Source of the DNA: Bilabrum cf. latius
Taxonomy: Eukaryota
DNA: 64,000 nt
Direction: 5' to 3'
Assembly (NCBI GenBank): GCA_965178125.1
Contig: OZ237756.1
Span: 806,001-870,000 of the forward strand
Below the pieces are notes generated by a model, which saw nothing but the letters and a program-made list of their open reading frames with translations, was not told the origin of the DNA and did not search any database. The position numbers and the translations under genes were made by a program. The number at the start of each line of letters is the position of its first letter. Position 1 is the stretch's first letter. Shown here in pieces: positions 2,540 through 23,302 of this stretch.

Positions 2540-2616
2540 TGTATATATATATTATTAATGATATAATTAATAATTTATAAACTTAAGAGATAATATGTCA
2601 ATTGGTAGGCTGTCTT

Positions 2617-3006
2617 TTAAAATGAAATATCCTTATTCATAAGGTCGTGTTTCTTTATAAAGGAATTGCTGGCTTTCATAGTCATTCCCTTTTGACGGCA
2701 CCATTTCATTAATTTATCCCTCTTTAACTATTTAGCACTACGGGGCTTTTTAGCTTTAGGGGCTTTCTTTGAACCCTTCTTTTTTCCTCCAGCAAGATAA
2801 TTGGGACCTCCAGCGAGAACGTTCGGCTATCCACCAAGAAGGTTCAAAGCTCCCCCTTTTGTCTTTCCTTTTGTGGTTGCGTTTAATATTTGGTTTGCTG
2901 TATCTTCAACCATTTTATCAATTTCTTTTTTATAATCATTTCTGTTTATTCCAAGATGATGAAGGCTTTTATTTGTCATATCATTTATGCTCTATTTAAC
3001 GCTCAT
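2617..3006 (-). CDS. Viral small basic protein (129 aa) with repeated LxGG motifs; putative DNA-condensing core protein
   Basis: With TAG=Q it reads MSVKQSIND...KTKGG-ALNLLGG-QPNVLAGG-PNYLAGG-KKKGSKKAPKAKKPRSAKQ...; ends TAA; absent from the ORF track. Confidence 0.75.
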
Positions 3007-3063
3007 ATTATTGTATATATTGGGTATATATAATTTGTTATTTATCCATACTTATAATATATA

Positions 3064-3879
3064 ATGAAAATTAATGAATTGACACAAGCTTATTTTAATG
3101 AATACGAGAACGATATATTTGATGAGGTGAATTTTAAGAAGGGGGCTAATTTATTTTTAAATGGTTCGTATGCTATTCCTTATTATTCCTTGTTTGCTAG
3201 TGATATAGATTTATATTAGAGGGTAGAGCCTGAATTTATAAATAGTTTAATAAGATTTGTAAAGGTTTTTATAAGTTAGGTTAATTTTTTTGAGGTTAAA
3301 GCTGGTAATAAAAAATACAAGACCATAAAAGCATTCATATCTACACCCGTTAAAACCATTTATAAATAGATATTTAGCGGAGATAAACCATACTTAAAAA
3401 TTGATTTTTGGGCTTTTGATGGAAAATTTATAGATGAAATAAGCATAATTTATCATATAAGTGATTATGAAATAGATTAGGACGATGTAAAAGATGGATT
3501 AATAAGAGATGTAGATAAATATTTTGGTTCTAATAATTTTAAAGTATTAAAACGATTGAAGGATTTATTTAAATTAAGAGGTGAGAAGAGGAATGAAAAA
3601 AGAGTCAATGATTTAATTGATAGGGAAGCATTAGGATATTTATATTCCATAAGAATGCGATTAGAAAGTATGCTAAGAATAAAAGGACATCAAAGCGAGA
3701 AGTCAAAATCATTTCAAAGCCTAAAAGGACTAATGAGAAAAGCATTAGGAAATGTGGAAATAATAAAACAATTTTCAAAGTATTCTAAAGCAAATATTAA
3801 TAAGATAATATCGTGGATTGACCAATACATAAATAGGAAAACACGGGCGGAAATTAAAAATATAATTATGTCTCTATAA
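3064..3879 (+). CDS. Pol-beta-superfamily nucleotidyltransferase-like protein (resembles the conserved virophage Sputnik V21-type 'transferase')
   Basis: LNGSYAIPYYSLFASDIDLY (GS...DxD) and a later KIDF strand; single frame with TAG read-through; ends TAA 3879. Confidence 0.75.
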
Positions 3880-3971
3880 CTTTTTTTGTGAGGAAGGATA
3901 GAAGAAGGAACCAACTTAATATTTTAAACCCGTGTGAATAAATGGTTTATTTTATTTTATTATTATATATA

Positions 3972-5040
3972 ATGCTATCTTTACAATATACGGAAAATAG
4001 CCATATTGTAGCTATTCAAAAATACAAAAAAACACAATAGAACCGGTTTATTTATTACGACCCGAACGCTAAAGATATTCAACACGTCAAAGCGGAAGAG
4101 ATAACAGATGATGTTTTAAAATCTTATTACGGAGAAAGCCGAGTAAGATATAACGTTGATAAGGACAAGAAAAGGGAACAATTACATAAACTATTACAAG
4201 ATGAATATATACGGTCAGTTTAGGAATTTGCGATTAAAGATAATAGTCAATATTTACCTTTTCCTATGCTCTTTCCATAGGGGCGTGAATATGTGCGATT
4301 ATTTGGTAAGAGTGGAAGCGGGAAAAGTCATTTAGCTTTACATTATATAAGGATGTATAGAGGATTAAAATATAAAAATATGTATGTTATATCACCAATT
4401 CAAGACCCTAAATATAAAAGAGAAGGCGCGACCTTCATTGATATAGATGATTTGGTTAAAGAGAATGAAAACACTTTATATAAGGAAAAAATGGCTTATT
4501 ATAAAAAAATGAAATTATTTTAAATATAAAAAATCTTCTTTGATGAAATCTAAACCTTTAGATGTTGTTATTGAAGCTGAAAGAAAGATAGAGGATTTGA
4601 AACCTGAGAAAGATTTAATAGAAAAAGGTTTTAAATTAAATGTTGAGTTTTTTAAAAAATTGACCGCTGAACCTAATTTATTTATTCTGGATGATTACGA
4701 AGGCTTTAAAAAAAGGAACCAGAAAGCAAAGGCTTATTTTTTATTGGAAATCCTAGCAACTACAGGAAGGCACACAGCAAGTAGCGTTTTAGACATCACC
4801 CACAAAATAAGCGACGGTATGAAGACACGAACCATTATGAACGAAATTACAACCCATATCATTTATAAAACAATTACAGCTAAAAGTTTAAAATATATTT
4901 TAGAAACAGTCTTAAGTTTTGACGCTCCTACTAGAAAACGAATTAAAAAAACCCTTCATTCTCTCCCTCTCTTTGGTTATGTTGCTATTAATGTTGATAA
5001 TAATTATGTAGTTAGCACAAAAAAAATATTTCTCTATTGA
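3972..5040 (+). CDS. A32/FtsK-HerA-type genome packaging ATPase (contains a +1 frame break at ~4518-4523)
   Basis: Walker A GKSGSGKS, Walker B LFILDD and the GRH motif followed by ITH; Walker A and Walker B lie in different frames, joined at TTA TTT TAA. Confidence 0.88.
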
Positions 5041-5048
5041 ATATATAA

Positions 5049-5624
5049 ATGAACATAAACGACTTAAATAGACTAGTCCAAACACCGTTATCTCCTTTAG
5101 AAATTCAAAAATTAGGTGTAGCACATTTGAATTACAAACCTAGAATAGTTATTTACGATGATATTATTAAATAGACCTCATCTATTGAACATATTTTTGA
5201 TGGTTATGACGGCGTAATTATTTATTATCCTAATAAAAAGACGGGACTAAATAGCACATACGGTCATTTCATTTCATTGACCAGAAAACCATCAAGCAAA
5301 ATAATATACTTCTTTGATAGCTATGGAGAAAAACCCGACCAATAGAAACCATTTATTAATAGAGACCAATTGTATCAAGGAGAAGGAGAAGAAAATACGC
5401 TGGTAAAGTATTTAATTGATTAGAAAATGGAAGGTTGGAAAATTGATTATAATCATAAACCGATTTAGAGTTATGCTAACAACAGCGCTACGTGTGGAAG
5501 ATGGGCTCTATTAAGAAACGCTTTTTCTTTCTTATCAAATGATTAGTTTGTAAATGAAATGTTTAGAATATCCAAAATTATGGCTCTTAGTCCTGATTAG
5601 TTAGTGGCGTTGCTTCTACATTGA
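5049..5624 (+). CDS. Adenain-like (clan CE) capsid maturation cysteine protease, 191 aa
   Basis: YGHFISL (His), YFFDSYG (Asp), YNHKPI[TAG]SYANNSATCGRW (oxyanion Gln and Cys); ends TGA; absent from the ORF track because of TAGs. Confidence 0.92.
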
Positions 5625-5826
5625 ATACTCCGACCATCTAATAAAAGGGCTAGAATAAAATAATAAAATATGATTATCTCTAAAATAAAATCCATACGAT
5701 GGCTATATCCACAAATTGCGTATATATTATAGTGTTTTCTAGCAAAACGTGGATGTAGGGCCTCTTGTGAAGGTGAAATGAAGATATAAGCCCTTTTATT
5801 TAGAAAAGTTCCATCGTTTTAGAAGG
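5623..5826 (+). repeat. Dispersed conserved non-coding element, copy 1 of 4 (candidate structured RNA)
   Basis: Blocks ATACGATGGCTATATCCACAAATTGCG, GCAAAACGTGGATGTAGGGCCTCTTGTGAAGG and AGTTCCATC..TTTAGAAGG recur inverted at ~10153, ~17778 and ~21904. Confidence 0.85.
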
Positions 5827-5960
5827 GCAATTTTTCATCCATCTAAATTCAATCAAACTTTTAAATATATTGGTAAAAGTGAAGGGTAAAAATCAAGATG
5901 AAATATTAGATAAGGTTTATTAATAAATATTTATTTGTATAGCTTTAATATATAAATAAA

Positions 5961-6914
5961 ATGAGTTATAGCGATGAATTTGTAAGATTGAATTTAGTTA
6001 GTTCATCTGTCCCCCACAATTAGACGAGATAGGCGGTAGTGAATGAAACCCGTGAAGGCTTAATATTAAAACAAAGTGAAAATTATTTAACGGCTGTTGA
6101 AGAGATGGATTTAAATAAATTTATGCTACCGGTGTTTAAACCTGAATATTAGGATGACAGCGGTAAAACCTATTTAAAATTTACTCTTGAGAATAAAACA
6201 TCAGGAGCCAGAGCAGGCGATTATATAGTTCTAGGTAAAAAAGCTAAATTTTATTATTCATATTAGGATATTGTAAATGAATTTAATGAAGAGTTAAGCC
6301 GAATTTGTGATTTGGTAAGCCTTCCAAGTGGTGATAAACCAGTCTTTAAATTTGAAAATAATAAATGGAGTTTATCAACAACTGAAGATTTTAGAGATAA
6401 TTATTATTTATTTGTTAATTTTGAAGCTTTTGCTTTATTTGATAAATTTGAATATGAAGGAATAACAACCACACCGAGTGATTTATTTGCTAAACTTTCA
6501 TATAATAATTCCCCTGCTAGTGGTGATTATGTTTTTATGGCTAGATAGACGAATTTAAATTCTTGGTGCCCTGTTAAATCTATTATCGTAGAAAGTGATA
6601 TTCCAGTGAATAAAGAATTGGTGACCACAAAATCATCTACTGGTGGCTCTATAGCCGTCAATAAATCCCCTATATTAACCAGCTACCCGTATAATCCTAA
6701 TGACAGCTCACCAATAGAAAATATATTATATGTTTCTAATCCTTACCGCTGGTATTCAATGATGAAGGATAGAAGCTTTAAGAGCGTGTCAATGGCGTTC
6801 TACTGGGTTGATAAACAAAATGAAAAGTATCCCGTAATGAATTTTAACGGGGGTGAAGCTCACATTAAACAAGTATTTAAAAAACAAACCGATAATTTAA
6901 GTTTAGATTTTTAA
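5961..6914 (+). CDS. Virophage minor capsid (penton) protein, 317 aa
   Basis: Motifs VNETREGLIL...LPVFKP, YYSY, WCPVKSIIVESDIPV, NPYRW and FYWVDK; lies directly upstream of the MCP; joins track ORFs 6312 and 6606 via TAG. Confidence 0.85.
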
Positions 6915-6985
6915 ATAAATTATAGAAGATTATAAAATATGTTTAGATATTAAAAAATTTATATCTATAGTGTATATATAAAAAA

Positions 6986-8875
6986 ATGGCTCAACAAATG
7001 GTTCAGAATTTACCAGTAAGCATTAAGGCTCCTAAAAGCCTTCAAATGATAACCCCTGAAGATGCTAGTTTAGGAACAGAACTAGGTGTTCAAAAATATA
7101 CCCGCCGAGAAATTAGACCATCATCTAATCAATCTAATTCTCTTCTTCCCCTTTCTTTCCCCGTTAATCCTACTAGTAAAACCGTATCAAGGTTTATTCG
7201 TCTTCGTCATCGTATGACAGTTAGGCTACAACTAGAGCAAGCAGTACCAGCTCAAACTGCGGGAGGTGATGCTATTACCGCTCAATCTTATCTTAAATCT
7301 AGGTTTGGAACTAATTCATTACCTACCTTTAAAATGCTTCAAGGTGGTGTTTTAACAATTAATGGATAGCCTTTTACAGTAAAAGTTTATGAATGGGCTG
7401 AACCTACTGAAGTTATGAACAGTGAAGAAACCTTATCCACAATCTCACCCGTTGGACGCCCTGACACTGTTGGTGATTATCGTGAAGTAAGTGATACCCT
7501 TAAAAATCCTTTAGCTTGGGGTTAGGATGTTGGATATAGTGCCGGTGATAGCTTTAGTTATCGTGGAGCATATGGGAATGCTTTTACGACTGTAAGTGCT
7601 GATTTCGTTGCGGGTAATAGAGACCAAATTGATTGGACTATTGATTTTCAAGAAGCTATACCACTAAAAGGAGCAGATGTTGATGTGAATGCTAAATATT
7701 TCACCGGTGTGAGAAGCCTTCAGGTTGATTTAGATTATCACGTAAATGCCATTCAAAGACTGTGTAAGGCTAGTTTTACAAAAGATAACGGAGATATTAA
7801 CAAAATAACGGGTTAGTCAATTATAGGAGAAACAAATACGACCCTTCTTGTTGATGAAGTTGAATTTTAGAGTGGATACGCCCCCCCGACTCGTTGTATG
7901 TATAATATGCCTACAATTAAATTTTAGTCTTAGGCGCCTGTCCCTGTACCTAAATCCGCAACTGAAAATTCTTTAACTTCTTTTGATTATCAATTATCCC
8001 GTGAGAATGGTATCCCTAGTGCTATTATGGTATGTGCCCGCCTTGTTGGTTGTGATGATAACCCTAACTGGGCTAATAGAACTTTACCAATTAGAAGAAT
8101 AGGTTTCTCACTCAATGGAAGCGCTGAGGAATTAGGGGCTGTAGATAATCCACACGAATTATATAGAATTAGTAGAAAGAACGGATATGCTCTTCCTCCT
8201 TCATCCTTTTATGGTTCATCAATTGATGGAAGTGATGGAAACCGCGGTACTGGTTGCTATATGATTTTAAAACCTTCAGATGTTGCTACACTTGCTGGTG
8301 TTCAATCTAATGTAAATACTGGATTTAATCTTAAAGTTAATCTTTAGTGCTTCAACCCTTATAATAAATATGCGGATGGTGCGTATGAGGATAAATACGA
8401 GGTAAAAGTATGGATGTTTTATGATAATGTTCTTGTGAATGATAACGGTGTCTATACTGAGGCTGGCGCCCTTATTGAGCCTTCTAAAGTGCTTTCTGAA
8501 CTTGCTAAACGTGGTGATGCTGAAAGTGGTTCTAAAGGTTTCTAGCCTGTATTTGAGGATTTAGATAATTATGCTAATGTTATGGGTGGAAAAGGTCGTT
8601 TCTGGTCTAAGATTGGACGAGCCTTTAAACACGGATGGAACAAGGTTAAAGATTGGGCAAAAAGTGATTAGGCTAAAAACCTAGCGAAAACCATTAGGAA
8701 TATAGGACCACTCAAAAGTCTAACAGGAGACAATAGTGCTCTTGGCAAAGCGGCGGCACATTATGGATATGGAAATAGTGGAGGAGAATTGAATAAACTT
8801 GGTGGAAAACTTACGATGCGTGGAGGTGCGGCAATGAAAACAGACGATCTTGAGGCCCTTTTAAGCACATCTTAA
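6986..8875 (+). CDS. Virophage major capsid protein (double jelly-roll), 629 aa with a probably cleavable C-terminal extension
   Basis: One frame from ATG 6986 to TAA 8873 with only TAG interruptions; virophage-like segments LTING[Q]P, LPIRRIGFSLNG, ELYRISRKNG and NLKVNL[Q]CFNP; tail rich in GG motifs. Confidence 0.9.
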
Positions 8876-8876
8876 A

Positions 8877-8894
8877 CGTTTAAAATGACTTAAA
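8877..8894 (+). promoter_or_regulatory. Putative viral early-promoter motif YGTTTAAAATRRYTTAAA (also 9483-9500+, 10978-10995-, 11415-11432+, 14809-14826-, 17646-17663-)
   Basis: Six copies, each ending 28-30 nt upstream of a predicted ATG on the matching strand. Confidence 0.75.
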
Positions 8895-8922
8895 TATATA
8901 TTAACTAACTAATATATATCAA

Positions 8923-9213
8923 ATGGAAAAGTTAAATAAAATTATTGAGAATCTACCGCCTACACACGATGTCTATATCCAGACAGAAATTGATGGAGTT
9001 TTGACCGTAATTTTTACAAACAGTGATTAGGTAAAAGAAATCACCAATCAATTAAAAAAAGACAGTAGAGAGAAGCTATTATATCTCAAATATTCAACCT
9101 ATAAATGTATTATTTAGACGAGGAATAAGTATAGAGATGATGACATTGTACTTCATTATTTGGCTGTTTGTCTATTAGAAAAGAAACCCATTCAATTATA
9201 TAAGGCAAGATAA
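8923..9213 (+). CDS. Viral hypothetical protein (96 aa)
   Basis: ATG 29 nt after the promoter motif; two in-frame TAG; TAA stop. Confidence 0.65.
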
Positions 9214-9264
9214 TCATTTTATTATTTATTTATACATATTAAATAAATATATGACCTGTGAATG

Positions 9265-9377
9265 ATACTTTCCAAAGTAGGTTCATACTTTCCGAAGTTG
9301 GTTCACACTTTTCAAAGTAGGTTCATACTTTCCGAAGTTGGTTCATACTTTTCAAAGTAGGTTCATACTTTCCAAAG
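9265..9377. repeat. Tandem array of ~5.5 x 20-bp units (ATACTTTYCRAAGTWGGTTC), each with an internal palindrome
   Basis: Directly visible; two alternating variants; ACTT-N4-AAGT dyad in every full unit. Confidence 0.9.
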
Positions 9378-9529
9378 AACTATTTAACCGGTCTAATTAA
9401 TTAATATTTTAATAATATTAATTAATATAATCATCTATATCAATAGTGTCTATTTTTTAAGCCCCTTTTTTATAATATAACGCGTTTAAAATGACTTAAA
9501 GATTATATTATATAGATATTATATAGAGA

Positions 9530-10081
9530 ATGTGTAAAAAGTGTATTGAACAAATATAGGAACATACCGGTAATATAAAATGGATGGACATTTAGAAGAA
9601 ATTAATTCATATTGGCTCAACCGTTATTCAAGGTGATAAATTGGGTAATTGTATTTGTGGGCACGAGATACGAACCGAGCACGAAATAGAGCATACCCCT
9701 AGTGGATATGTTTTTAAAGTGGGTTCTAGTTGTATAAAGTAGATGATAAAGGATAAAGAAAATCAAATTCGTAAAAAATGTTTATATAAGTGGTGTGGAA
9801 TATGTAAAAAGGATGTCGCAAGAGACCGATATAATAAGCACTGTGAAGGAATAAGACATATTGAGTTAGAAAAGAAATAGAATAAGTTAGAGGAAAAAAA
9901 GAGGAATGAAAAAAGATGTGATGTGTGTCTTTGTAAAATGCTTAGAAGTGATTGGAGGACAACCTGTAAGTCTTGTTATACGATTACAAAATATGGTAAA
10001 AAGGCGTGTAAAAAATGCGGAGTGTCTAGAATTAAAGATATGAAATATTCAATTTGTTATAAATGTCATATTGGTAAATAA
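9530..10081 (+). CDS. Viral Cys-rich multi-zinc-finger protein (183 aa)
   Basis: CICGHEI...VGSSCI motif, a C2H2-like unit and several CxxC pairs; promoter motif 30 nt upstream; TAG read-through needed. Confidence 0.78.
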
Positions 10082-10152
10082 TAATTAGATATTAATGATA
10101 AAATTAATATTTAACATATTGATGATGGGAGTTAGAAGGGGCTATATTACAA

Positions 10153-10355
10153 CCTTCTAAAGTGATGGAACTTTTGGGCTAGAAATACGTTATCAATCAA
10201 ATCATCTTCATAAAACTAATCCATCCACGTTTTGCTAAATAATACATATACTAATACGCAATTTGTGGATATAGCCATCGTATGGATTTTATAATAGAGA
10301 TAACCATATATATTTTAATATTCTAGCCCTTTTATTAGATGGTCAAGGTGTTCAA
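10153..10355 (-). repeat. Dispersed conserved non-coding element, copy 2
   Basis: Reverse-complement match to 5623-5826; the central CCTCTTGTGAAGG block is diverged. Confidence 0.85.
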
Positions 10356-10403
10356 TTATTAATAAAGATATCATATTTAATATTAGTATAAATATTAAAT
10401 TAT

Positions 10404-10949
10404 TTAGAAATCTTTTAATGCTTCTTGAAGTTGCTCTCTAAAGGCTTCTTCATCATCATCTTCATCATCTGGTTTCTCAACATTTCTATTATTATCACGT
10501 TTTTGTTTCTTCTTATTCCTCTTCTTAGTCTTTTTCTTGGGTCTTCTTGGTTCTTCTTCTTCTTCTGGTTCCTCTACTTCCTCGGGTATAAATTGACCGT
10601 ATGACAAATTAATATATTTGATGGCTTTGTCCTTCTTTTTAATTGTCATTATGGGGTCTTTACTCTCAAAATTTCCTGTATAATAAATCGGGGGCTCACT
10701 AGAAAACATATAAATGTATGGAACAAATGGATTTTTGGCACTGTCGGTTTTCATATCAGGGGTTAGATACAAACCATTTAATTCGTCTTCATCCACTAGT
10801 TCAAATTTATCTTCTACGGTATTATTAAAAAATATCCCTTTAAAAGTCTTAAAGAAGAATTGATTAATATATTTCTTGGCTTTCTTTACGGCTCCTTCTT
10901 CTAAAAGTTCCATTAATTCGCTTGGTTCATAACTCTCAAATTTTGACAT
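10404..10949 (-). CDS. Viral hypothetical protein with acidic/basic (NLS-like) C-terminus
   Basis: Intact 181-aa ORF; promoter motif 29 nt upstream. Confidence 0.75.
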   Translation of the reverse strand: MSKFESYEPSELMELLEEGAVKKAKKYINQFFFKTFKGIFFNNTVEDKFELVDEDELNGLYLTPDMKTDSAKNPFVPYIYMFSSEPPIYYTGNFESKDPIMTIKKKDKAIKYINLSYGQFIPEEVEEPEEEEEPRRPKKKTKKRNKKKQKRDNNRNVEKPDDEDDDEEAFREQLQEALKDF

Positions 10950-11041
10950 TCTATATATATTATAATAAAATAAAATCTTTAAGTCATTTTAAACGCGTCT
11001 ATTTGGCTTAAAAATAAAATATCTATAGTATATATATAAAA

Positions 11042-11383
11042 ATGGTTAAATTAAGTGATATTCAAATTGTTAGAACTCAACTTGTTAAAAACAATAAGCC
11101 CGTATATAATTTCGTGTTCCCTCCTCGTCCAGATGATGGATATAATGATTTAGAAATGAAGACTTTATTAAAAAAATATATCTAGAGGTTATTAAAACAA
11201 AAGCCCCATTTAAAAAATTATGATGCGTATGTTAGTTCTCTCTACCCCATAGGCTGGCGAACTGGTTCACCATTTAAATTAAAGGATGATGTAATGCTAT
11301 TCAGTCCTTCTTCTCGTTATACCTTCTTAAGTGATGAGCAAGTGAAGAGATTTATATTAATCCTCACTGCTCCGAAACAATAA
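11042..11383 (+). CDS. Viral hypothetical protein (113 aa)
   Basis: TATATATAAAAATG context; one in-frame TAG; TAA stop. Confidence 0.65.
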
Positions 11384-11461
11384 TTACATTTTATAATTTA
11401 AACTTTATAATATGTGTTTAAAATGGCTTAAAAATATATTAAATATAATATACTATAGGAA

Positions 11462-12961
11462 ATGATAAATTATGAAAATGTGTTAAATCAATTAAATATA
11501 TGCTTTGGTAAAAAGTATGATAACCCCATTCAATCCGTGAAGTATCTAGAAAAGGTATTTAACGGTAAGCCCATAACTACAAAGAACCTTTATAAACTTG
11601 TTTCAGGTTTAAAAATGGATATAGAGATTAGAGAGAAAGACGATATAAAGGTCTATTATCTAAGTAGGAAAAAAGAGAGTTTTAAAAGGGTTTGTTTAGA
11701 ATATAAAGATGGTTCATTTAAAGCCGTCTAGAGGATGAAACCTTTATTTGTGCGGTGCCATAAATCTATGGTTGTTAAATTAACCGATAAAGCCGAAATA
11801 ATTGAAAAAGATAAATATAGAGTTGAGAGCCTAACCGATTATCATTCAAAGAAATATTATCTTCATTACACCATTCACGAATGCCCAGAGGATGAAGATA
11901 TCAAAGAATGGAGCTTAAGGCTGAGTATAGCAAGTGATGAATTACACGACGAGAACCCATCATTAGATGTAATGAAATATGGAATCAGACAAACAGCCCT
12001 TCATTTCTTTACAATGTTTAATATGATGATAGATAGCCCACCAGATATAACCCCAGAGGAAGCGGTATTTATTGAAGGTTCAACGCGTGGCGGGATTCAA
12101 TATCACAAGAAGGGACAATATGAGGAGTTTATCACCTACGATATAAATAGTCATTACCCCGCCATTATGTCATCTAATTCACTACTACCATATGGAAATC
12201 CTATTTATAAAACAATTGATAATAAATAGATAAATAATAAAAACGAAATAGGGATTTATAAATGTAAGGTGAGCCAAGGGAAATGCGACCCGAATATCTT
12301 TCAAATGATGAAGGTATTTGAAAATGAATTTACTTATTATGTCTTTACAGATATGAATATGTTTGTTAAATATGGTTGTGAGATAGAGATGTCAAGCGAC
12401 GAATTTAATTTTATGACCTATGATAAATTTATCAAAAGTGAAACACTTTTTAAATCCTATGTCTCAATGTTCTACAAATTAAAAAGCAAATCATATCTAG
12501 CAAAAGAAATATTAAATTCATTATGGGGTAAATTATGTAGTTCCTCTAAAAAGACAATTACATCAAAAGACGATAAAAAAATAAATATAGATAAATTTGA
12601 TATTGACCGTGTAGAAATGGATAATGACGGAGAATTTATTTATCATTTAAAACATAAAGTACCCTTTAAATATAGCTGGGGAAAATTGAAACCTTTTATT
12701 CTGGCATATGGAAGACAACGATTGATGAAGAAAGTGAATAAGAACAACGCTAAACATATTATACGAATTCACACCGACAGTATCACATTTAACAAAAGAT
12801 TAAATTTTAAAGTAGGTAAAGAATTAGGTGAATATAAAAAAGAATAGATAAATGAAGAAGGATAGAAATTAATTATCCACGGATAGAATGATTTAATGGT
12901 CGTAAATGAAAAAGAAGAAATTATATCAAGGAAAGGAAAAAAAGGCGGTTTAATGCTTTGA
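11462..12961 (+). CDS. polB: Family B DNA polymerase (pPolB-like), short 499-aa form
   Basis: TRGG, YDINSHYP (motif A), KEILNSLWGK (motif B), RIHTDSI (motif C); three track ORFs in one frame separated only by TAG; TGA stop. Confidence 0.88.
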
Positions 12962-12988
12962 ATTAAATATTTATTAATTATATAATAT

Positions 12989-13147
12989 ATGATTAATATT
13001 ATTAGTAATATCTTTGTTTAGTATGCTATTAAGAAGGCATTAAAGAAGGTAAAAAATAAATTAATGAAGAATCCAAATAATAAAAGACTCTATGAAGAAT
13101 ATAGAAAAAAAACGGCTCACGCTATTAAAAAATTATCATTTTATTAA
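12989..13147 (+). CDS. Small basic viral hypothetical protein (52 aa)
   Basis: ATG after TATAATAT, one TAG, fills the gap between genes. Confidence 0.4.
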
Positions 13148-13155
13148 TTATACAA

Positions 13156-13863
13156 ATGAATGATAATATACCTAGTTATATTAATAATCCTAAAATTTAC
13201 AAAAAAGCAATCCAAGAAGTAAATAGAACGTATAAAAAACCATCAGCTTATCGTTCATTAGCCTATCTAAAAAAATATAAACAACTAGGGGGGACATATG
13301 ATAAAATTAAATTAAATGAAGCATAGAAAAATTTAAGAAGGTGGAAATTAGAGGATTGGAAGAATTAGAAGGGAGAAAAGGGATATTAGGAAAAAGGAGA
13401 TATATATAGACCCACTAAAAGAATAAATAAAGAGACCCCTTTAACCTTTGGAGAATTAGACACGGAAGAAATAGAGGAAGCAATGAAGGAAAAATTTAAT
13501 AACGGACACGTGAAATCATTTAGACCTAAACCAGTTTTTAATTTATATAAATCAACTAAATCAAATAAAAAATATATGATTAAAGTAGTTCAAGGTAATA
13601 ATATTCTGTTTACTGTTCATTTTGGTGGAATTAAGAATGATGGTACCCCTTATATGGACTTTATACAATATTATAATAAAGATGGAGAGAAGGAAGCAAA
13701 CCGTAAAAAGAAAAATTATATTAAAAGACATTCAATAAATGAAGACTTTAAAGACTATAAATCCCCCGCTTTTTGGTCTAGGTTTGTATTATGGAATGAA
13801 CCAACATTAAAAGATAGCTTTATGGACGCCGTAGATAGAGCTAAAAAATTAATGAAAGTTTAA
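13156..13863 (+). CDS. Fusion of two small domains common in giant viruses/virophages (DUF5872-like plus DUF5754-like)
   Basis: N-terminal PSAYRS..KKYK.LGG.Y...RW..EDW...YRPTKRI..ETP; C-terminal KKYM...VHFG...Y.D...Y..RH...SPAFWSR..LW. Family names recalled, not searched. Confidence 0.65.
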
Positions 13864-13916
13864 TATTATAGGTTTGATATAAGTTTTAGTTTTTCTCTTA
13901 TTTATATATACAAAAA

Positions 13917-14438
13917 ATGAGCTTAGCAAGATTATCGCAACCTAATGATATATCTATTCAATGTAAGAATGTCGCAACTGGTAGATTAGATAGTAGTGGT
14001 CTATATGTAAATGCTGTTGTGAATAGTAGTGATGTAGTTGTTAGCAACGCAGGATTACATCTTGACAGTAAGGGTATCTCTTACATCACTTCGGGTGAAG
14101 CTTTACGATTCGGTGCCAATACCGCATCTGCTGGTTTAGTTATGAGTTTTGATGAAGACGGTCACGAATGTGATTTAACCGTAAAAGGTGAAGTAGTAGC
14201 AAATAACACCGTAGCGCATAAAGGAAGGGTAAATTGGAGTGGTGGAGGTGCTACTGAATTTGCTAGTGTTCCGGGTATGACTTCTAGTGATTTGGTTTTT
14301 ATTACTACAATCACCCCCGCCAGTGAGCCGGTTGAATTTTCCCACGTAGTAGCAGGAACCGATGGATTTACGATTCATTTAACGGGTGGTAATTCCTCTA
14401 ATGATTGGTCCGCTAATTGGATGGTTATTAAAGGTTGA
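13917..14438 (+). CDS. Putative beta-rich fibre/spike-like virion protein
   Basis: Intact 173-aa G/S/V/T-rich ORF with the TATATA..AAAAATG context shared with capsid genes. Confidence 0.55.
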   Translation: MSLARLSQPNDISIQCKNVATGRLDSSGLYVNAVVNSSDVVVSNAGLHLDSKGISYITSGEALRFGANTASAGLVMSFDEDGHECDLTVKGEVVANNTVAHKGRVNWSGGGATEFASVPGMTSSDLVFITTITPASEPVEFSHVVAGTDGFTIHLTGGNSSNDWSANWMVIKG

Positions 14439-14478
14439 AAAATCTTTTTATTTATAAAAAATAAATAAATAGATAAAT

Positions 14479-14781
14479 TTAAATTGATATCTCCGGTGGT
14501 TTAATCCCGCTATTAAGCAGGGTTTGATTAAGTTTTTTGATATATTCCTCTAGTATATCCTTTTTTGGTTCTTTGAGATTTTTTTGGTGTTTCTTCGTTC
14601 GTTCGTGTCTCGTTCTGTCCTTCCTTCTATAATAACAATCACACACATCGCATTTAACTTTTTCATTTCCTCTAGCTAAATATTTTTTATTCCATTTGTC
14701 TTTGTTTGTTTTGTAATATTCCTACATATAATTAATTTTTGGTTGTTCCTATGTATTGCTTGAACTCTAAATATCGCTCAT
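14479..14781 (-). CDS. Small C2H2 (U1/matrin-like) zinc-finger protein (100 aa)
   Basis: VKCDVCDCYIRRKDRTRHERTKKH; three TAGs near the N-terminus; promoter motif 28 nt upstream. Confidence 0.75.
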
Positions 14782-14839
14782 CACTATATATTATATAAAT
14801 ATATAATGTTTAAGTTATTTTAAACACATAAAAAAGGTA

Positions 14840-17617
14840 TTAAATATTCTAATCTAATCGTTCGTTGGATTCCTTGTATACGTCCTTCATTTCGGGATAC
14901 TAATATTTATAAACTTCATCAAATAATTCTTTCTCCTTGGTGAATTTAATTCTTAATTCTCTATCCTTTTTATCCTTTTTATTCCCCATACTCCAGGAGG
15001 TTTTGATATTTCCAAATAACTACTTATATAATTTTACGATTGCCCCGTGTAATTCACTATCGGTTTCTATTGGCTTCTATAATCTCGCCCCGCTTACTTC
15101 TACATATCTTTTACCCATTTCTATATATTTAATGGATTTCTCATTTTTACGTGTATAACTTAAATCAAATTTATTCAATTTAAGCGTCTATAACATCTCC
15201 TACAATATGATTATTTTATTCTTTGTACTTTTTGCTTTTTCATCCTTAAAATCCTTTCTATCCTTTAATTCTGTCATTAGTTTATATTTATCTTTTCTCT
15301 TGAAATTAGCATAATTAAAATAATTCATTAATTTGTAATTATCAATTAATAACATTTTAATATCCTCCGTTATGGCTGTCTCTGGTAGCCCTAAAATTTC
15401 AATTCTTCTTTTTATATGGTCGTTCTCTACATCAAATGAATCAATCTTTTCTTGTAGTATCTCCATTGTCGCCTCTTTCATCTGCTATTTATTCATTCGT
15501 TGTGGTAATTCCTTATCCACCTATACATCGGCACCCCTGTTTTTAAGAATAAGCTATAAATGAATATATTTATTTGTTTCGTATGTATCACATTTGAAAT
15601 TATATAATTTCTTGAGTGGTAAATAAACCTTATATGATGCCTCTATCATTGCTTTATGGGCTATCTCTTCATCATCTTCTCCCTCAAAAATATCAATGTC
15701 AATATCATTCTCCTACATTATCCTTTTTTCGTATTTTTCTAATTTAGTATATAAATCTGTCTATGCGTTAATTTCCATATTTAAGGTCGTCTATACCTCC
15801 TTTAAATTCTCATATCTTGGATAAATGGATTTTACATCTTCAAAATATATATTCATATATTCGGGATTTCTACATCTTGCCAGTTGCTACATCATCTACG
15901 GCGGTAGAATCGTTTTTCCTTTATATAATCCATACACTGGGCGTTCCATTACACTATCTAATCCGTAAATGACTTTAGGACTAAATATAATTTTATCATA
16001 TTTATCTAAGCTCACATCTTCATCAGGTAATAAATCACTAGTAATTAATTTAACGTCCTCTATACCATCTTTACATAACATTTTATAAAATGTATCTGCG
16101 TTCTTCTTGCTATCACACGCCAGTATAAATTTATCTTCACTTTTTAATTTATCGTAAAATTTCTATTGGTCTTTTTCAAAATATACTTTTACGTCCTTAA
16201 AATGCTTATATTTATTCTTAATGAAGCTAAATTCTACTCCAGCACATTTTAAAAATTTCATCGCTATCTGGGATATGTCAGCATCTACAGCAATAAACTA
16301 TTTACACGTCCTTATCATTTTTAAAATAATAAATAATACAAGAACCCTATTATTATTCATCGTGGTAGAACTTAATATATGCTCTATAATGCTATTGAAT
16401 TCATCCAAGAATACGATGTATTTAGAAAAATCATAATTCACAATTTGGGGGATACTTTCCGGCGTAATAATAAGAGACTATCCAAAATCAAAATCTTTAT
16501 TCTGGTAGAACTCACATTTAATATCTTCATTTAAAAAGCTCTCGTATTGCTCTGTGCCTAAACATACACGGGACACAATGGATAAGAACGGCGTTTGAAC
16601 CTGTTTAATATACTTCTTAAATGCTGTTGTTTTACCTGTTCCTGTATCACTTTTTACCACATAGTTATATTCATATTTAAAAAAGCGTTCGGGCTTCTCT
16701 ATATCATCTAACTTAGGTTTATTAATTTCTGTATACCCGTTAATATTCTCGTCATAAGGACGATAATAACACTTTGAAATATACTTATCCTTCACAAATG
16801 CCTTTAAACTTTTATCATTCTAAATTATTGAATTAACTAAATTAAAGGTTTTTAACTTATCAAAATAATGGATAGAGTTCCACACCTTGTTATTTTTGTG
16901 GTAGTCGTATTTATTGCCCTTCTTGCTCCACTCCTACCATTCCTTCTTAAATCCTAAATATTTACTCGCTAGGGTTGCTTTATACCAATCACTATAATTA
17001 TTTAAATATTTCTTATCTAATCTATTTAATATAATTGACCAGTCTTTACCATTTAGAATGAATTTCATCATACAGTTATTCACATCTTGATTATCAATTT
17101 TTGATATCCTTTTACTCGCCCCTTTTACGTTGGATTTCTTAGAGGATTTAATAATATACTTTTCATAAAATTTATAAAGCTCCTTAGGACATTTTTTTAT
17201 TTCTACATTATTAATAACTTCGTATTTTGACCCATTTATGCCACTTGGTGGTGCCACTACATAAGCCCCATCATTACGAATATCAACGTCAATATCTCTA
17301 TTGGTGGTAGTTAATATATTCTAATCATATTTAAAATATAAATGATACCCTCCACCCGCTGTTTTAACCGTGAATGTGTTGAACCGCTTCACAAAGTCAT
17401 CTGAAAATTTCTTGATGAATAAATGCTCCTTCTTATCGCTCCATTTATATGAATCAATATCAAACACGGTTATATTATTAATTTCTCCGGTGATAATAGC
17501 CATATTCTGATTATTGAATCGTTTAGGCTCGGGTTTGGTGAGATAACGCCAGCTTTTAACATCGGGTATTTTTTGATTGTGCTTGATGGGGAAACTTACG
17601 AGGTTTTTATTATTCAT
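14840..17617 (-). CDS. Bifunctional Prim-Pol (AEP) + PriCT-2 + SF2 helicase (herpes UL9/origin-binding-protein-like) fusion, 925 aa
   Basis: AIITG...VFDID, KTAGGGYHLYF, DIRNDGAYVVAPPS; NYSDWYK...W[Q]EWSK; KSDTGTGKT, VFLDEFNS, SPKVIYGLD, MM[Q]QLARCR; five track ORFs in one frame. Confidence 0.88.
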
Positions 17618-17777
17618 TTTCTATATATATTATTAGAAATATATTTTTAAACTATTTTAAACGCCATATTTAATTATAGAGGGCTTAAAGGGGCTATAAT
17701 AATTAATGAAGGTGAAAGGTGATTTTTGCCATTTAGCCCTAAAAAATAGATTGTGATATGAATGGTGTATTTTAACA

Positions 17778-17980
17778 CCTTCTAAAGTGATGGAACTATT
17801 TTTTAAAATTATCTTAAGGTCCCATACCACCTTCACAAGAGGCCCTACATCCACATTTTGCTAGAAATACTATATAATTATACGCAATTTGTGGATATAG
17901 CCATCGTATAGATTTTAATATAGCGGTTATATTAAAATATTTAATTAAATTCTAGCCCGTTTATTAAGTTGTAGGGGCTT
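17778..17980 (-). repeat. Dispersed conserved non-coding element, copy 3
   Basis: Reverse-complement match to 5623-5826; begins right after the TAA of gene 17981-18751. Confidence 0.85.
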
Positions 17981-18751
17981 TTAATTATAGATATCTTGTA
18001 GTTTTTCGTGTTCGGCCTTCACATCAAGGGTCAAATATACCCGGCTATTCCAAAACTCAGGGCTGTTTATATCATCGCTATTATTAATATTAAAATTTCT
18101 TTTAATTTTACAAATCATAATTTGTAATTTACGAGGGCTAAACTATTTCTTAAGAGCCTCTACATCGGGTAAATTAATTTCACCAAAGAATACATCATTT
18201 CCATTTACGGACACTTTATACCTATAGTCTCCGTCTTCTAGCCTTTCCAGGTCTCCAATTATTTTTTTGTCTTCCTCAGGTATCATTTCGTCATCAGTTT
18301 CTGCTTCTATCTAGTCTTGTTCGGTACTAACGCTGTTTATTTCGCTTTCACTGTCAGGCTCCATACCGGTTAATTTTTCATCTATTGCGGTCTATCTAAT
18401 TAATTCTGGCGGTTGTAAATCATCTACATCATTATAAATTTTATTATTTGGTGGTTTGTAGTCATTAAATTTATCTAGAATGTATGTTTGCTTAATTTCA
18501 ACTTGGTCGTTATTATCGTGTTGTATCTTCTGTTTCTCTTCTTTCTTGGGTTTTTTGACGGCTTTTTTCTCTTTAATATCACTAACTATATTTTTATTAA
18601 TTAATTTTGGTTTTGAAAACTTACCACCTAAATCTACATACGTAGTAATGGTCTCTAAAATTTTTTGCGTACTATCTGTAATATGGTCTGTAGCCTTATA
18701 AATCTGCTTCATTAGGACAGGATTTTCAATGACATAATTATTAAAGTTCAT
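17981..18751 (-). CDS. Viral hypothetical protein (256 aa)
   Basis: Track ORF 18392-18751 extends through TAGs to TAA 17981. Confidence 0.7.
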
Positions 18752-18969
18752 ATCTATAATACTAAGTTATAATTTTTGAGTTTTAAAAAAACGCTTAGAG
18801 GTGGGGGGGTTATGTGGGGGTTATCCCTGCCTATAGGCTAGGGTTATGAAGGGGGTTATGTGATGTATAGGCATAGATTAATACTTTAGAACCCTGTATC
18901 ATTTCAATCATCCAATCTTATGGTGGGTAAGCACCTTAAATTTTGTAAATCCCCCTACGGTCAAGGGGC

Positions 18970-19701
18970 TTACTCCTCCTCACTCTCAGCATTGGCCACC
19001 TGTGGGTCCTCCTCAGCATCAGACACAGCGTCCGGTTCCGGCTCGCGTTCCGGCTCCACATCCACGACAGCATCCGCTCTTGGCTTCAGTTTTCCATCTC
19101 CAGTCGTCCACTTCCTTGAAGGCGGGGCAGGCTTGGGTTCGGCACGGGGTTGGATGTCCGCCGTCTCGTTGTCGGGTTCACCAGCTTCAGCCCTCTGTTT
19201 AGCCTTCAGCTCGGCCAGTCTTTTCAGGGCACCCCGTCCTTTCCCCTTCTTCCCTCGCACACCCTTGGGCTTGCGCTTGGGTTTGGGCTTGGGCTTGGAT
19301 GGCATCTTGTCCGGCTCGTCCGCGGTCATATCGCTCATCGTGTTGTCGCCAGAAATAGGCTCTTCCACACTAGCCTGTTCATTTAAAATCTACTTGAGCG
19401 CTTCAGAACGGCAGGAACTGATGAACGCATCAACGTCTAAGTTGAGGTCGTACGCAAAAGCCCTAGCCTACTCCTACGCAAAACGTAGATTGTTGAGTCC
19501 ATACTACGCAATGGTGCTCGTAGTAATGAAATCCTCTTGTCGTACCTTTTTACATCCAAAACGCAGCTCGAGCTACATCCGCTACATCTAGATGACAAAT
19601 GGTGCTACTTCCTCCAAAATCTTCATGACCAGAAGCTTGCTCTACCGCTAGGCTTTCCGGACTTGGTTCTTTTGCGTATGCTCCCGTCTAGGCTTGGGCA
19701 T
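18970..19701 (-). CDS. Terminal-module hypothetical protein (243 aa) with basic NLS-like and acidic C-terminal regions
   Basis: ATG 19701, many in-frame TAG, KPKPKPKRKPKGVRGKKGKGR, TAA stop. Confidence 0.65.
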
Positions 19702-19731
19702 AATAATAAATTGGTTGCTATAAGTGAATGT

Positions 19732-19781
19732 TTAGACCGCCACATTTCCTAAGAAATGCTGGCTTCCAATATTCAGGTCCA
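19732..19781 (-). promoter_or_regulatory. 50-bp direct repeat (partner at 21735-21784) with dyad CATTTC-N4-GAAATG and CCAAT; putative promoter
   Basis: 47/50 identical copies, each about 30 nt upstream of the first coding base of a minus-strand gene. Confidence 0.65.
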
Positions 19782-19953
19782 GATTTAGCAGGTGTGATGA
19801 GTGTTTGTCGCCACGTCCTTCTCATCCAGCACACGACCAACCGAGACCACTAGAGACCAAACCAGACACTGAGAAATAATTAATTAATATATTTCAATCT
19901 CATCATTCCAAATCCTCCTAACTAATTATAATATCGTAGAGCTATCCACCTAC

Positions 19954-20730
19954 TCACTCCCAAAAATGCTCGGAAGTGAAGGGGTCCTCACCGAGAAGAA
20001 CGTCCAGTTCATCAAGACCGTCCTCCATTGGACTTGATGGAATAGGTGGAAGCCCATCACCCACGTCAAAGCCACCCGCACCAGCACCCATATCATCCCC
20101 TCCCACAGATGACGCGTCAAATTCACCAGCACCAGCACCAGCACCATCACCGAGTGAAGGCGGGGCATACGCGGAGCCACCAGCGTAGTATCCAGCACCG
20201 GACGAAGGCGGGGCAGATGAAGCCTAACCACCAGCACCAGCACCATCACCGAGTGAACGCGGGGCATACGACGCGGAGCCACCCGCCACAGCGCCGGACG
20301 AAGGCGGGGCAGATGAAGCGGAGCCACCAGCACCAGCACCGAGTGAAGGTGGGGCAGATGAAGCGGAGCCACCAGCACGTAATCCCTGGATCCTCTAATT
20401 AATAATATCGATACGCTCCGTACTCATAGTGAGTTTGTCCTGTACCCGCTTCACGAACTACAGCGCCTCATTACACCGGTAATCTAGGTCCAAGACCTTC
20501 TTTGACTGCTCAGAGGACATAAACTGTACCACTGAACGAATGTTAATATCCAAATTAATACCCTCCCTCCTAAGCTCGTGCTCGGCTGTGCGGTACGCCT
20601 CCTCGGCGCTCTTCAGTTCGCCGGCAAACTTGTCATTCTGCTTCCGCTCCTTCTTCAGTAGCTTGTTCAATCCCCGTACATCCTAATTATAAATACCTTT
20701 AGAATTAATCCATTGACTAGTAGCCATCAT
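19954..20730 (-). CDS. Terminal-module protein (258 aa): helical N-terminus, G/A/S/P repeats, acidic-aromatic tail
   Basis: MMATSQWINSKG... open with TAG=Q to TGA 19954; tail DGLDELDVLLGEDPFTSEHFWE. Confidence 0.65.
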
Positions 20731-21035
20731 CGTTGAGCCTCGTTGGTATGAGAACCGAGCTGCGGTGTTGTACGGCAAAAAAAGATCACCTTGCTATCTC
20801 GCGCTATTCATTAGATACAAACTTTCAGACCAACCTGATACAATTAATACACAACAAAATTAATTCTGTGTGTCCCACCCGACATAATTGAAGGAATTAT
20901 AACTTGATGTACGGGGGATTGTGGCAGTCCACGGCACGCGCTAAAAAAACTTATTTATTAATTGTTGAGTATAGATACAATCGGCATCGCCTGCTCGCCA
21001 GCAGTAGAAGCACACCACCAAGCACCAACGACCAA

Positions 21036-21701
21036 TCAATCCACCTCCATCTCGTCCTCGCTAGCCTCCCCGTCCTCCAGCATTGGGGTTGAGTTCTTGG
21101 TTCCTCGAATGTCGGATATGGTGTTGGCACCACCGCCAGGGTTGGCATCAGCCAAAGCAAGACGATTATTCACGAGGTCGGCAATGTTGAACCCGAATTT
21201 AGCCCTCATCGTTGACTGTACAGGTCGCATAAGCGGGTGAGACTTCACAGCCACCATCTTCTCCGCCTCGTTCTTGGACAGCACATCGTAGTGGGCGTGT
21301 AGGTGTATCATCGTGAGCACCTGATACAGCATCACAGCCCGCTTCTTGGCATCGTGAGGACTTTTACAGCCTTTGACGAAATCCCGCATTGACGCAAGAC
21401 AATCGGCCGGCACTCCCATCTTTATGAGATGATACCCCTGCTCCACCATCTCCTGCTTGATGCTGTCCCGCTTGGCCTCGTAGTCCTGCTGTGCTCCCGC
21501 GATGGCTTTCACATAGCCTTTGAGTTGAGACTTGGTAGCCATAGTCAGTTTGTTGTTCTTGAAGGCGTGGGCACTATCGGGGATGCGACCTTTGACCGTA
21601 AACACCTCTGGCACTGCGATATAGCATATTGGCTTGGGCAGTACAATCTACGTATCAATCCAATACAACCAAATACGCCGGTGTGGTGGGGGTATCTTAC
21701 T
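21036..21701 (-). CDS. Terminal-module hypothetical protein (192 aa); start codon split by an 87-nt GT-AG intron (21700-21614)
   Basis: No in-frame ATG near the 5' end of the ORF; removing GTAAG...CGCAG creates A|TG CCA GAG. Confidence 0.62.
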
Positions 21702-21734
21702 TTTTTCTATTAGCAGTCTATTAAAAGTGAAGGA

Positions 21735-21784
21735 TTAGACCGCCACATTTCCTAAGAAATGCTGAACTCCAATATTCAGGTCCA
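21735..21784 (-). promoter_or_regulatory. Second copy of the 50-bp putative promoter repeat
   Basis: Near-identical to 19732-19781. Confidence 0.65.
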
Positions 21785-21903
21785 TTTTGACGATGACGAG
21801 TGTAGCGAGTTGCTGTTGCGTCTTTGTTCCATTTGTGAAGGTATAAGCGAGGATAAGGGGGTATAATGAAGGTAGTTTAGAAGGTTGAATAATGGAGTCC
21901 CAT

Positions 21904-22040
21904 AAAGTGATGGAACTTTTGGCTAGAAAATGGCTAGAGTCCCATAAAACCTTCACAAGAGGGCTACATCCACGTTTTGATTAGAACTTACTATAATATA
22001 TACCCAAAGTATGGATATGGTCATCGTATAGAGTTTTATA
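21904..22040 (-). repeat. Dispersed conserved non-coding element, copy 4 (most diverged, subterminal)
   Basis: Retains AAAGTGATGGAACT, CCTTCACAAGAGG, CTACATCCACGTTTTG and TGGATAT..TCATCGTAT. Confidence 0.8.
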
Positions 22041-22243
22041 TTAAATTGATTTTATATAATTAGAAGGATAAAGCAGTTATGTGAAGTAGCAGTATGAAGA
22101 GGACCACCTTGACTTTTGGAGCGACTAGCGAGAAAAGGAATGGAGAGAGGGAAGAGCTTTAGCTCTGACTGAACGTAATTATTGATGATGTTAATCATCC
22201 TTAACCGAAGGGAATAAATTTATTTATTACCGTAGCGGGGGGG

Positions 22244-23302
22244 TTGGAGGCCGAGAGAGCGGCATGGGCACTGCTTAATATCGCAGCTGGATCGGAGGGC
22301 CTGAAGCATGCTGTAGTGGATGAAGGTGCGCTGCCTGGGTTGGTGTGCCTGCGTGGATCCAGCAAGGGTTTGGAGGCTGAGAATGCTGCATGGGCGCTTC
22401 AAAACATTGCTAATGCGTCCAATAGCCTGAAGCGGGCTGTACTGGATGCAGGTGCGCTGCCCGGGCTTGTGGACCTGCTTGGATCTAGCAAGGGCTTGGA
22501 GGCCGAGACGGTGGCATGGGCACTGCTTAATATCGCAGCTGGATCATACGACCTGAAGCAGGCTATAGTGGATGAAGGTGCGCTGCCCGGGCTGGTGGGC
22601 CTGCTTAGATCTAGCAAAGGCAAGGAGGCCAAGACGGCGGCTTGGGCACTGCTTAATATCGCAGCTGGATCGGAGGGTATGAGGCAGACTGTAGTGGATG
22701 CAGGTGCGCTGCCCGGGCTGGTAGTGTTGCTTGGATCCAGCAAGGGTTTGGAGGCCGAGAGAGCGGCATGGGCACTGCTTAATATCGCAGCTGGATCGGA
22801 GGGCCTGAAGCATGCTGTAGTGGATGAAGGTGCGCTGCCTGGGTTGGTGTGCCTGCGTGGATCCAGCAAGGGTTTGGAGGCTGAGAATGCTGCATGGGCG
22901 CTTCAAAACATTGCTAATGCGTCCAATAGCCTGAAGCAGGCTGTAGTGGATGCAGAAGCGCTGCCCGGGCTTGTGGACCTGCTTGAATCTAGCAAAGGCG
23001 AGGAGGCTGAGAATACGACATGTGCACTTCTTAACATTGCAGCTGGATCGAAGGACCTGAAGCAGGCCGTGGTGGATGCAGGTGCGCTGCCTGGGCTGGT
23101 GGTGTTGCTGAGATCGGGCAAAGGCGAGGAGGCTGAAAATGCGGCGAGGGCCATTTCGAATACTGCAGCTGGATCGAAGGACATGAAGCAGGCCGTTGTG
23201 GATGCAGGTGCGTTGGGCCCACTAAGGCAGCTGAGGGACTCTATCACAGGACCAACTCGTACGAGGGTCCGAGCGGCTCTGCTGGTTTCGGGCGAGGCGT
23301 GA
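22244..23302 (+). pseudogene. 3' part of a host armadillo-repeat gene interrupted by the virophage insertion
   Basis: Begins mid-repeat (TTG GAG GCC GAG) right after the viral G7 end; ~42-aa ARM repeats; C-terminus and 3' flank near-identical to gene 33607-36801. Confidence 0.82.

Follow-up and report, generated by a model that had tools for sequence, protein, structure and literature searches.

We describe a non-coding element of ~235 nucleotides (nt) that is present, by sequence alignment, in four homologous copies in one AT-rich, integrated virophage. The virophage lies in a 64,000-nt stretch of the Bilabrum cf. latius assembly (GenBank GCA_965178125.1, contig OZ237756.1, positions 806,001 to 870,000), which is called the window below and from whose first letter all positions are counted. 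The element is a real, virophage-specific, strand-oriented repeat, with no known relative and no proven function. Its blocks of sequence and the distances between them are conserved, the same central hairpin is found in every copy, and all four copies share the orientation of the adjacent genes. Our favored reading, a tentative one with a probability of about 0.38, is that the element is an RNA-level punctuation or 3'-end module of the gene-sense strand. A DNA-level protein-binding module is nearly as likely.

Virophages rely on a giant virus for transcription and RNA processing. To our knowledge, the signals shared by virophages and giant viruses are short promoters and hairpins defined by structure only. 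With its sequence and spacing both conserved and with four occurrences in ~20 kb, a 235-nt module would add a new class of cis signal or of small RNA to this three-way parasitism. Studying it may shed light on the ending of virophage transcripts, on module recombination, or on the silencing and reactivation of integrated virophages. The virophage lineage that carries it has no close relative in the collections searched and reads TAG as a sense codon. At the level of titles and abstracts, the literature yielded no description of such an element in virophages (as a ribozyme, a non-coding RNA or intergenic inverted repeats), nor of a virophage with TAG as sense.

Copies and architecture

A preliminary description of this DNA, made from the letters alone, had reported four copies of ~200 nt. 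They lie where it placed them, and the motifs that it read in copy 1 are exact (ACGATGG at 5696, CTATATCCAC at 5703, GTGGATGTAG at 5749 and CCATCGT at 5811). The true extents are larger than those it gave, as follows.

Copy 1, 5620-5856, plus strand: the most complete copy; block 1, 5641-5656; spacer 1, 5657-5686; block 2, 5687-5724; hairpin, 5703-5758, with loop 5725-5738; block 3, 5739-5775; spacer 2, 5776-5805; block 4, 5806-5826; third CCWTCTAA site (site 3), 5839-5846.
Copy 2, 10124-10358, minus strand: block 1, 10335-10320; block 2, 10290-10253; hairpin, 10274-10219; block 3, 10238-10203, its 3' half diverged; block 4, 10173-10153; site 3, 10139-10132.
Copy 3, 17752-17984, minus strand: block 1, 17964-17949; block 2, 17916-17879; hairpin, 17900-17845; block 3, 17864-17828; block 4, 17798-17778.
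Copy 4, 21866-22089, minus strand: the most diverged copy; block 2, 22036-21999; hairpin, 22020-21964; block 3, 21983-21948; block 4, 21918-21898; site 3, 21884-21877.
Insertion, 18849-21790: 2.9 kb of higher GC content within the virophage, parting copy 4 from the rest.

With as many as three mismatches allowed, a core pattern of 20 nt had five matches in the window versus 0.02 expected. Four of them are the copies, with no mismatches each. The fifth (8964-8983, three mismatches) lies inside the open reading frame (ORF) 8923-9213 and has dissimilar flanks. A profile built from the four-copy alignment gave four full-length matches in the window, at 5621-5854 on the plus strand and 10355-10124, 17983-17749 and 22089-21869 on the minus strand, with expectation (E) values of 3e-63 to 9e-54. 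It found no further copies there: the nine other matches listed had E values of at least 0.05 and were mostly palindromic self-matches. The 42 kb of host-like flank, searched with the same profile, held no copy. Neither terminal inverted repeats at the true ends of the element nor target-site duplications in the flanks were found in the four copies.

The copies consist of conserved GC-containing blocks and variable AT-rich spacers, as the preliminary description had it. Across copies 1-3, block identities range from 86 to 100%, with the third block of copy 2 as the exception. The values are 94-100% for block 1, 95-97% for block 2 and 86-95% for block 4; for block 3, copies 1 and 3 agree at 97%, and copy 2 is 70-73% identical to both. 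Copy 4 is almost full length with a degenerate 5' block (44-50% identity for block 1), and its blocks 2-4 are 69-82% identical to those of the remaining copies. The spacers are only 20-70% identical. Despite this scrambled sequence their lengths are constant to within 3 nt, measuring, in copies 1-4, respectively, 30/29/32/30, 14/14/14/15, 30/29/29/29 and 12/13/13/13 nt. Since spacers that are saturated in sequence and fixed in length lie beside near-invariant blocks, the alignment suggests purifying selection on the blocks and their geometry rather than recent duplication.

The 8-mer CCWTCTAA occurs at 11 sites in the window, compared with 4.2 expected. Nine of the 11 are inside the copies (3, 3, 1 and 2 in copies 1-4, respectively), where they are laid out as direct, inverted and direct repeats.

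The element is not protein-coding, and there is no constraint on frame. A mini-ORF opened by the ATG of block 2 varies in length: 23 codons in copy 1 as in copy 4, 43 codons in copy 2, and in copy 3 a stop already at codon 9. Between the two hairpin arms of copy 4 the frame shifts, and four of the first seven codons after the ATG alter the residue. All codon differences among the copies are non-synonymous, with no synonymous-only change. The element is called non-coding because the frame is not kept across the copies and because of this pattern of codon differences.

Copy 4 belongs to the same virophage as the other three. Position 18848 is joined to 21791 in contigs of all four public runs. 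In three of the runs, the depth over 2600-18850 and 21769-22400 is ~10x that over 19125-19785 and 20447-21768; in the fourth, shallow run the contrast is smaller over 19125-19785. The contig joints and the depth contrast identify 18849-21790 as a later insertion and thus copy 4 as part of the virophage. The insertion itself contains a very deep repeat (19786-20446) and two minus-strand ORFs without a family match (19954-20811 and 21036-21542).

No relative of the element emerged from the homology searches. Infernal (cmscan) on both strands of window positions 1-24000 gave no Rfam match at E ≤ 1. ARAGORN predicted no tRNA gene in the whole window, and with this the idea of a tRNA or suppressor tRNA was dropped. 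That the element could not be matched to hammerhead, HDV, twister or tRNA in the preliminary description agrees with both results. Among viral contigs, patterns in IUPAC code for the core, the hairpin, block 1, block 3 and block 4 had no matches in four scans of five. The lone match (contig L001, 12587-12606) was judged to be due to chance, since a GC-richer coding repeat surrounds it and the sequences on either side are dissimilar. The hairpin pattern matched nothing in metagenome contigs and nothing in genome contigs, and blastn with settings for distant similarity found no match to the element in a phage collection.

Hairpin, strand and gene ends

The central hairpin is imperfect and consists of 10 bp, a 3x3 internal loop and a further 4 bp. 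It is found in all four copies, with 92.5-100% of the cells of these 10+4 bp paired. For a consensus of 27 pairs drawn from the four-copy alignment, 90.7% of the cells are paired, versus 38-49% when the partners are slid along the sequence. One U-G pair is kept in every copy. Copy 4 gains two more wobbles, in line with the G-U pairing that the preliminary description noted for it: a change from C-G to U-G at alignment columns 97/135 and one from C-G to G-U at columns 104/128. Such wobble pairs fit only the gene-sense strand because the opposite strand would have A-C mismatches.

The genes next to the copies are arranged as follows.

Copy 1: after a protease-like gene (stop TGA 5622-5624, inside the element) and before the penton gene (ATG 5961).
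Copy 2: between the convergent genes 9530-10081 (plus strand) and 10404-10949 (minus strand; stop TAA 10404-10406).
Copy 3: stop TAA 17981-17983 of gene 17981-18751 (minus strand) inside its 5' end; the downstream gene is that of the primase-helicase (ATG 17617).
Copy 4: at the end of the virophage, ~150 nt from its right end (~22235) and upstream of gene 17981-18751.

Copies 1-3 had been said to start 0-50 nt past the stop codon of a co-oriented gene, and they do: copies 1 and 3 include the stop, and copy 2 begins 46 nt after it. The stop of the upstream gene occupies the same aligned column of the 5' end in both copies that include it, and the next co-oriented gene starts 115-140 nt farther on. 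These two best-kept copies have the same setting, between two co-oriented genes; the decayed ones are copy 2, between convergent genes, and copy 4, which is terminal.

We infer that transcription would reach the module from the upstream gene, as the end of that gene's RNA (copies 1 and 3 contain the upstream stop codon), or else through read-through. A protein, encoded by the virophage or by its helper giant virus, would recognize the hairpin together with the blocks beside it, and this recognition may set or protect the RNA end through processing, termination or stability. If so, the module would elaborate, in a sequence-specific way, on the hairpin-type 3'-end signals found in mimivirid-like viruses.

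Ordinary palindromes also occur near gene ends of this virophage. A search for perfect AT palindromes with arms of at least 9 nt and loops of 3-8 nt returned seven, all of them within the 2290 non-coding nt of the virophage and none in its 16098 coding nt.

Perfect AT palindromes (arms 9-13, loops 5-8): 2551-2574, 8894-8919, 9223-9249, 9396-9426, 10375-10400, 14447-14469 and 17912-17938.

Six of the seven sit 4-43 nt after a stop codon and, by analogy, look like the gene ends of the mimivirid "hairpin rule". The hairpin of the element begins ~78-130 nt past the stop codon.

Several observations weigh against a 3'-end module made of RNA. Two of the AT palindromes adjoin or interrupt the element: 10375-10400 lies between copy 2 and the stop of the minus-strand gene, 4 nt after that stop, and 17912-17938, with a perfect 11-bp stem, lies within spacer 1 of copy 3. 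If both are true 3'-end signals, the cores of copies 2 and 3 are beyond the mRNA ends, which weakens a simple assignment to the 3' untranslated region (UTR) of the upstream gene at these copies. The central hairpin was recovered on both strands, and it is the only part common to all minimum-free-energy folds. For copies 1-4, the folding z scores were weak on the sense strand (-2.55, +0.22, -2.71 and -0.83) and no worse on the antisense strand (-2.33, -0.30, -2.79 and -0.89).

Covariation is nil. Only 1 of the 27 pairs has a double change (C-G to G-U in copy 4), and 129 of 500 shuffles match this, in a test that has very low power with four copies and invariant stems. The covariation term of RNAalifold was +0.56, and the searches of the collections gave no homologue of the element for comparison.

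Pairing outside the hairpin varies from copy to copy. The closing helix has 7, 5, 5 and 4 bp in copies 1, 2, 3 and 4, and the closed domain with a pseudoknot that had been proposed is not kept in all of them. Block 1 pairs with spacer 2 over 15 bp in copy 1 and over 9 bp plus more, in another register, in copy 2; the pairing is weak in copy 3 and absent from copy 4. The pairing of 5' AAAAGGGCT with AGCCC noted earlier for copies 1 and 2 is seen in these copies only, each in a different register. This long-range pairing of the 5' block is confined to those two copies, and its duplex energies across copies are as good as those within a copy. Pairing of spacer 1 with spacer 2 was likewise no better within copies than between them. 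Finally, recognition of DNA by protein would account equally well for the unpaired conserved blocks, the fixed spacing and the three CCWTCTAA sites of each full copy. The proposal of an RNA on one strand keeps the conserved hairpin, the sense-only wobbles and the co-orientation, and finds no support in the covariation or in the folding energies. A structured RNA is not demonstrated.

Competing explanations

Nearly as likely as the RNA-level module is a cis module that works as DNA, with a logic like that of the homologous regions of baculoviruses, in which proteins bind sites at fixed spacing and which serves as an origin, an enhancer or insulator, or a packaging or recombination site. Candidate sites would be CCWTCTAA, the CCATC/GATGG motifs and the imperfect palindrome. 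The spacers are free in sequence and fixed in length, the blocks are conserved whether they can pair or not, and 9 of the 11 CCWTCTAA sites of the window are in the copies as direct, inverted and direct repeats. The nil covariation and the similar folding energies of the two strands fit such a module too, as do the two convergent gene-end palindromes that flank copy 2. In addition, potential binders of such sites are present among the virophage's own proteins, namely the primase-helicase and two small Cys-rich proteins (genes 9530-10081 and 14479-14781), although the binding protein is so far only hypothetical. Contigs in two runs are mosaics in which parts of copies 2, 3 and 4 are combined, as is expected if copies recombine; these contigs are either real variants or de Bruijn graph paths through shared words. 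What a duplex site does not need is the co-orientation of all four copies or wobbles that fit one strand. A DNA role was mentioned in the preliminary description; fixed-length spacers and repeated CCWTCTAA sites suit a DNA-protein module about as well as they suit RNA.

It is doubtful that the element represents a conserved family of structured RNAs, which would be the first one from a virophage. If it does, a sense RNA, made on its own or cut from transcripts, would have its hairpin processed (for example, by the helper's RNase III) or would cleave itself, and would act on the expression of the helper virus or the host.

A stand-alone gene for a small non-coding RNA, hairpin-processed or self-cleaving, with block 1 as its promoter ~30 nt upstream of the core, is rather unlikely. 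Its strong points are the fixed ~30-nt spacer from block 1 to block 2, the conserved stem arms with a variable loop, and the position of the core of copy 2 past the palindrome of the upstream gene, where it would need its own transcription. The promoter evidence goes the other way. A promoter-like motif, GTTTAAAATRRYTTAAA, precedes six genes of the virophage, always 44-46 nt before the ATG (8878, 9484, 10994 on the minus strand, 11416, 14825 on the minus strand and 17662 on the minus strand; six sites versus 0.06 expected), and has no site within the element. It is missing from the capsid-type genes, which have TATATA..AAAATG right in front of the start instead. Block 1 was considered as a copy of this motif and rejected: it is unlike all six sites, and block-1-like sites are not enriched elsewhere (28 versus 20 expected). 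Furthermore, copy 4 has no block 1, covariation is nil, Rfam gave nothing at the threshold used, and reading of the copies revealed no ribozyme core motif. Nothing positive was found for the self-cleaving ribozyme that had been suggested earlier.

We consider it unlikely that the element is a functionless repeat, selfish or spread by recombination, similar to a miniature inverted-repeat transposable element (MITE) and with blocks kept alike by gene conversion. In copies 1 and 2, in registers that differ, block 1 and part of spacer 2 are inverted repeats of each other; a different part is lost in each copy; ORFs extend into the 5' ends of copies 1 and 3; and mosaic variants occur in other runs. 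However, this inverted repeat is internal and limited to two of the four copies, there are no terminal inverted repeats or target-site duplications, and neither neutral decay nor conversion predicts spacers that are saturated yet constant in length. The run depth over the copies is at most ~1.5x that of neighboring bins, whereas the true host repeat at 19786-20446 is 10-25x deeper in three of the four runs and ~5x deeper in the fourth. This difference argues against a large family outside the virophage, and a high-copy host MITE, a possibility raised in the preliminary description, is contradicted by the depth and by the lack of target-site duplications.

A small protein gene starting at the ATG of block 2 is very unlikely: the ATG has a TATA-rich context like that of real gene starts, and copies 1 and 4 share the terminal TGA despite two compensating indels, but the reading frame behaves as described above, differing in copy 4 across the 3' arm. 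Least probable of all is a 3' UTR element resembling a selenocysteine insertion sequence (SECIS) that directs in-frame decoding of UAG, for although TAG is sense in the virophage (83 in-frame TAGs) and the hairpin, with its internal AAA loop and small apical helix, resembles a form-2 SECIS, TAG use and copy placement do not match (the gene before copy 2 has no TAG, and 13 TAG-containing genes have no copy behind them), the AUGA/GA quartet is absent from the copies, and host ORFs also lengthen with TAG as sense, as expected of a genome-wide code.

The virophage and comparison with known systems

The GC content of the window is 27-34% from ~2 to 18.8 kb, 42-50% from 18 to 22 kb and 48-69% in the remainder. 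Only short ORFs are open in the AT-rich part when the standard code is used; if TAG is taken as sense and TAA and TGA as stops, a clean set of non-overlapping genes appears. The 18 ORFs between 461 and 18751 have 83 in-frame TAGs in 5348 codons, and every one ends in TAA or TGA. CAG is rare (13 in the virophage ORFs), which hints that TAG encodes Gln; nine TAG columns of a capsid alignment gave no clear answer as to the residue. Reading through TAG also lengthens or fuses ORFs of the GC-rich, host-like DNA, for example, in a kinase-ARM frame at 33604-35499, so that the code may be the host's own and genome-wide. The genes recognized in the virophage include the following.

5961-6914: penton gene, Sputnik minor capsid V18/19 (Pfam, 5e-7).
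6986-8875: MCP_V20_C, a weak sub-threshold Pfam match.
13156-13863: DUF5872 (Pfam).
14840-17617, minus strand: primase-helicase with Prim-Pol and PriCT_2 domains (Pfam).

With HMMER, the capsid protein had 54 matches among 1.84 billion representatives. One of them is a 100% identical fragment that is cut at a TAG; the next best is 42% identical over a fragment, and full-length matches are 25-33% identical. By sequence comparison, the protein is confirmed to be of virophage type without close relatives. No locus of a capsid relative was found in viral contigs, no word-based homologue of near length was found, and tblastn had no match among phages. Patterns from a two-sequence capsid alignment matched 257 times in viral contigs and 396 times in metagenome contigs, with no confirmed locus.

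The left end of the virophage is outside the window, and the right end is at ~22235. There it adjoins an armadillo (ARM)-repeat ORF (22241-23299; Pfam Arm, 6e-44). Since this ORF begins mid-repeat, the virophage may have been inserted into an ARM-repeat gene. Two separate ORFs, 3942-4523 and 4543-5040, together correspond to one packaging-ATPase-like gene. In contigs of three runs, 2 additional bases follow 4516 and would bring the halves into one frame; either this copy is frame-shifted or the assembly has an error there. At ~9262-9380, in the intergenic region before gene 9530-10081, approximately six tandem units of ~20 nt (GGTTCATACTTTCCAAAGTA-like) coincide with raised run depth. Many run contigs are only 85-95% identical to the virophage, with variants both at 90-95% and below 90%. 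Together with the ~10x depth of three runs, they point to several virophage copies or variants, or to free virophage DNA, in the organisms. The GC-rich, host-like DNA at 61593-64000 holds an array of no fewer than 47 tandem repeats of 45 nt, which overlaps long open frames on both strands.

Among known repeats, the element resembles MITEs in being short, non-coding and repeated, with internal inverted repeats. It differs from them in having no terminal inverted repeats, no target-site duplications and, by the profile search of the window and the run depth, no copies outside the virophage.

The attC sites of integrons are imperfect inverted repeats at the 3' ends of co-oriented genes, with a variable center and one functional strand. 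The element likewise has an imperfect inverted repeat at gene 3' ends, a variable center and a strand bias. Unlike the case of attC, the window has no integron-type integrase, there are no R/L box motifs, and sequence is conserved rather than structure alone.

The homologous regions (hrs) of baculoviruses form tandem arrays and function in either orientation. Like hrs, the element is dispersed, intergenic, centered on an imperfect palindrome and conserved in sequence between copies. Unlike hrs, its copies are single and all co-oriented with genes.

Mimivirid hairpin signals are short-looped AT palindromes, defined by structure and not by sequence. Hairpin ("hairpin rule") polyadenylation or 3'-end signals are described for Mimiviridae in two reports (PMC6723459 and PMC4402537), one of which places the mimivirus hairpin polyadenylation signal at 16 genes of the Sputnik virophage (PMC6723459). 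The element of this study differs from such signals in its length of 235 nt, its conserved sequence, its ~23-nt loop and 3x3 internal loop, and its conserved unpaired blocks; in addition, two of its copies have a separate ordinary palindrome before or inside them. It is like them in being an intergenic hairpin past stop codons, co-oriented with genes, in a virophage that has AT palindromes after at least six stops.

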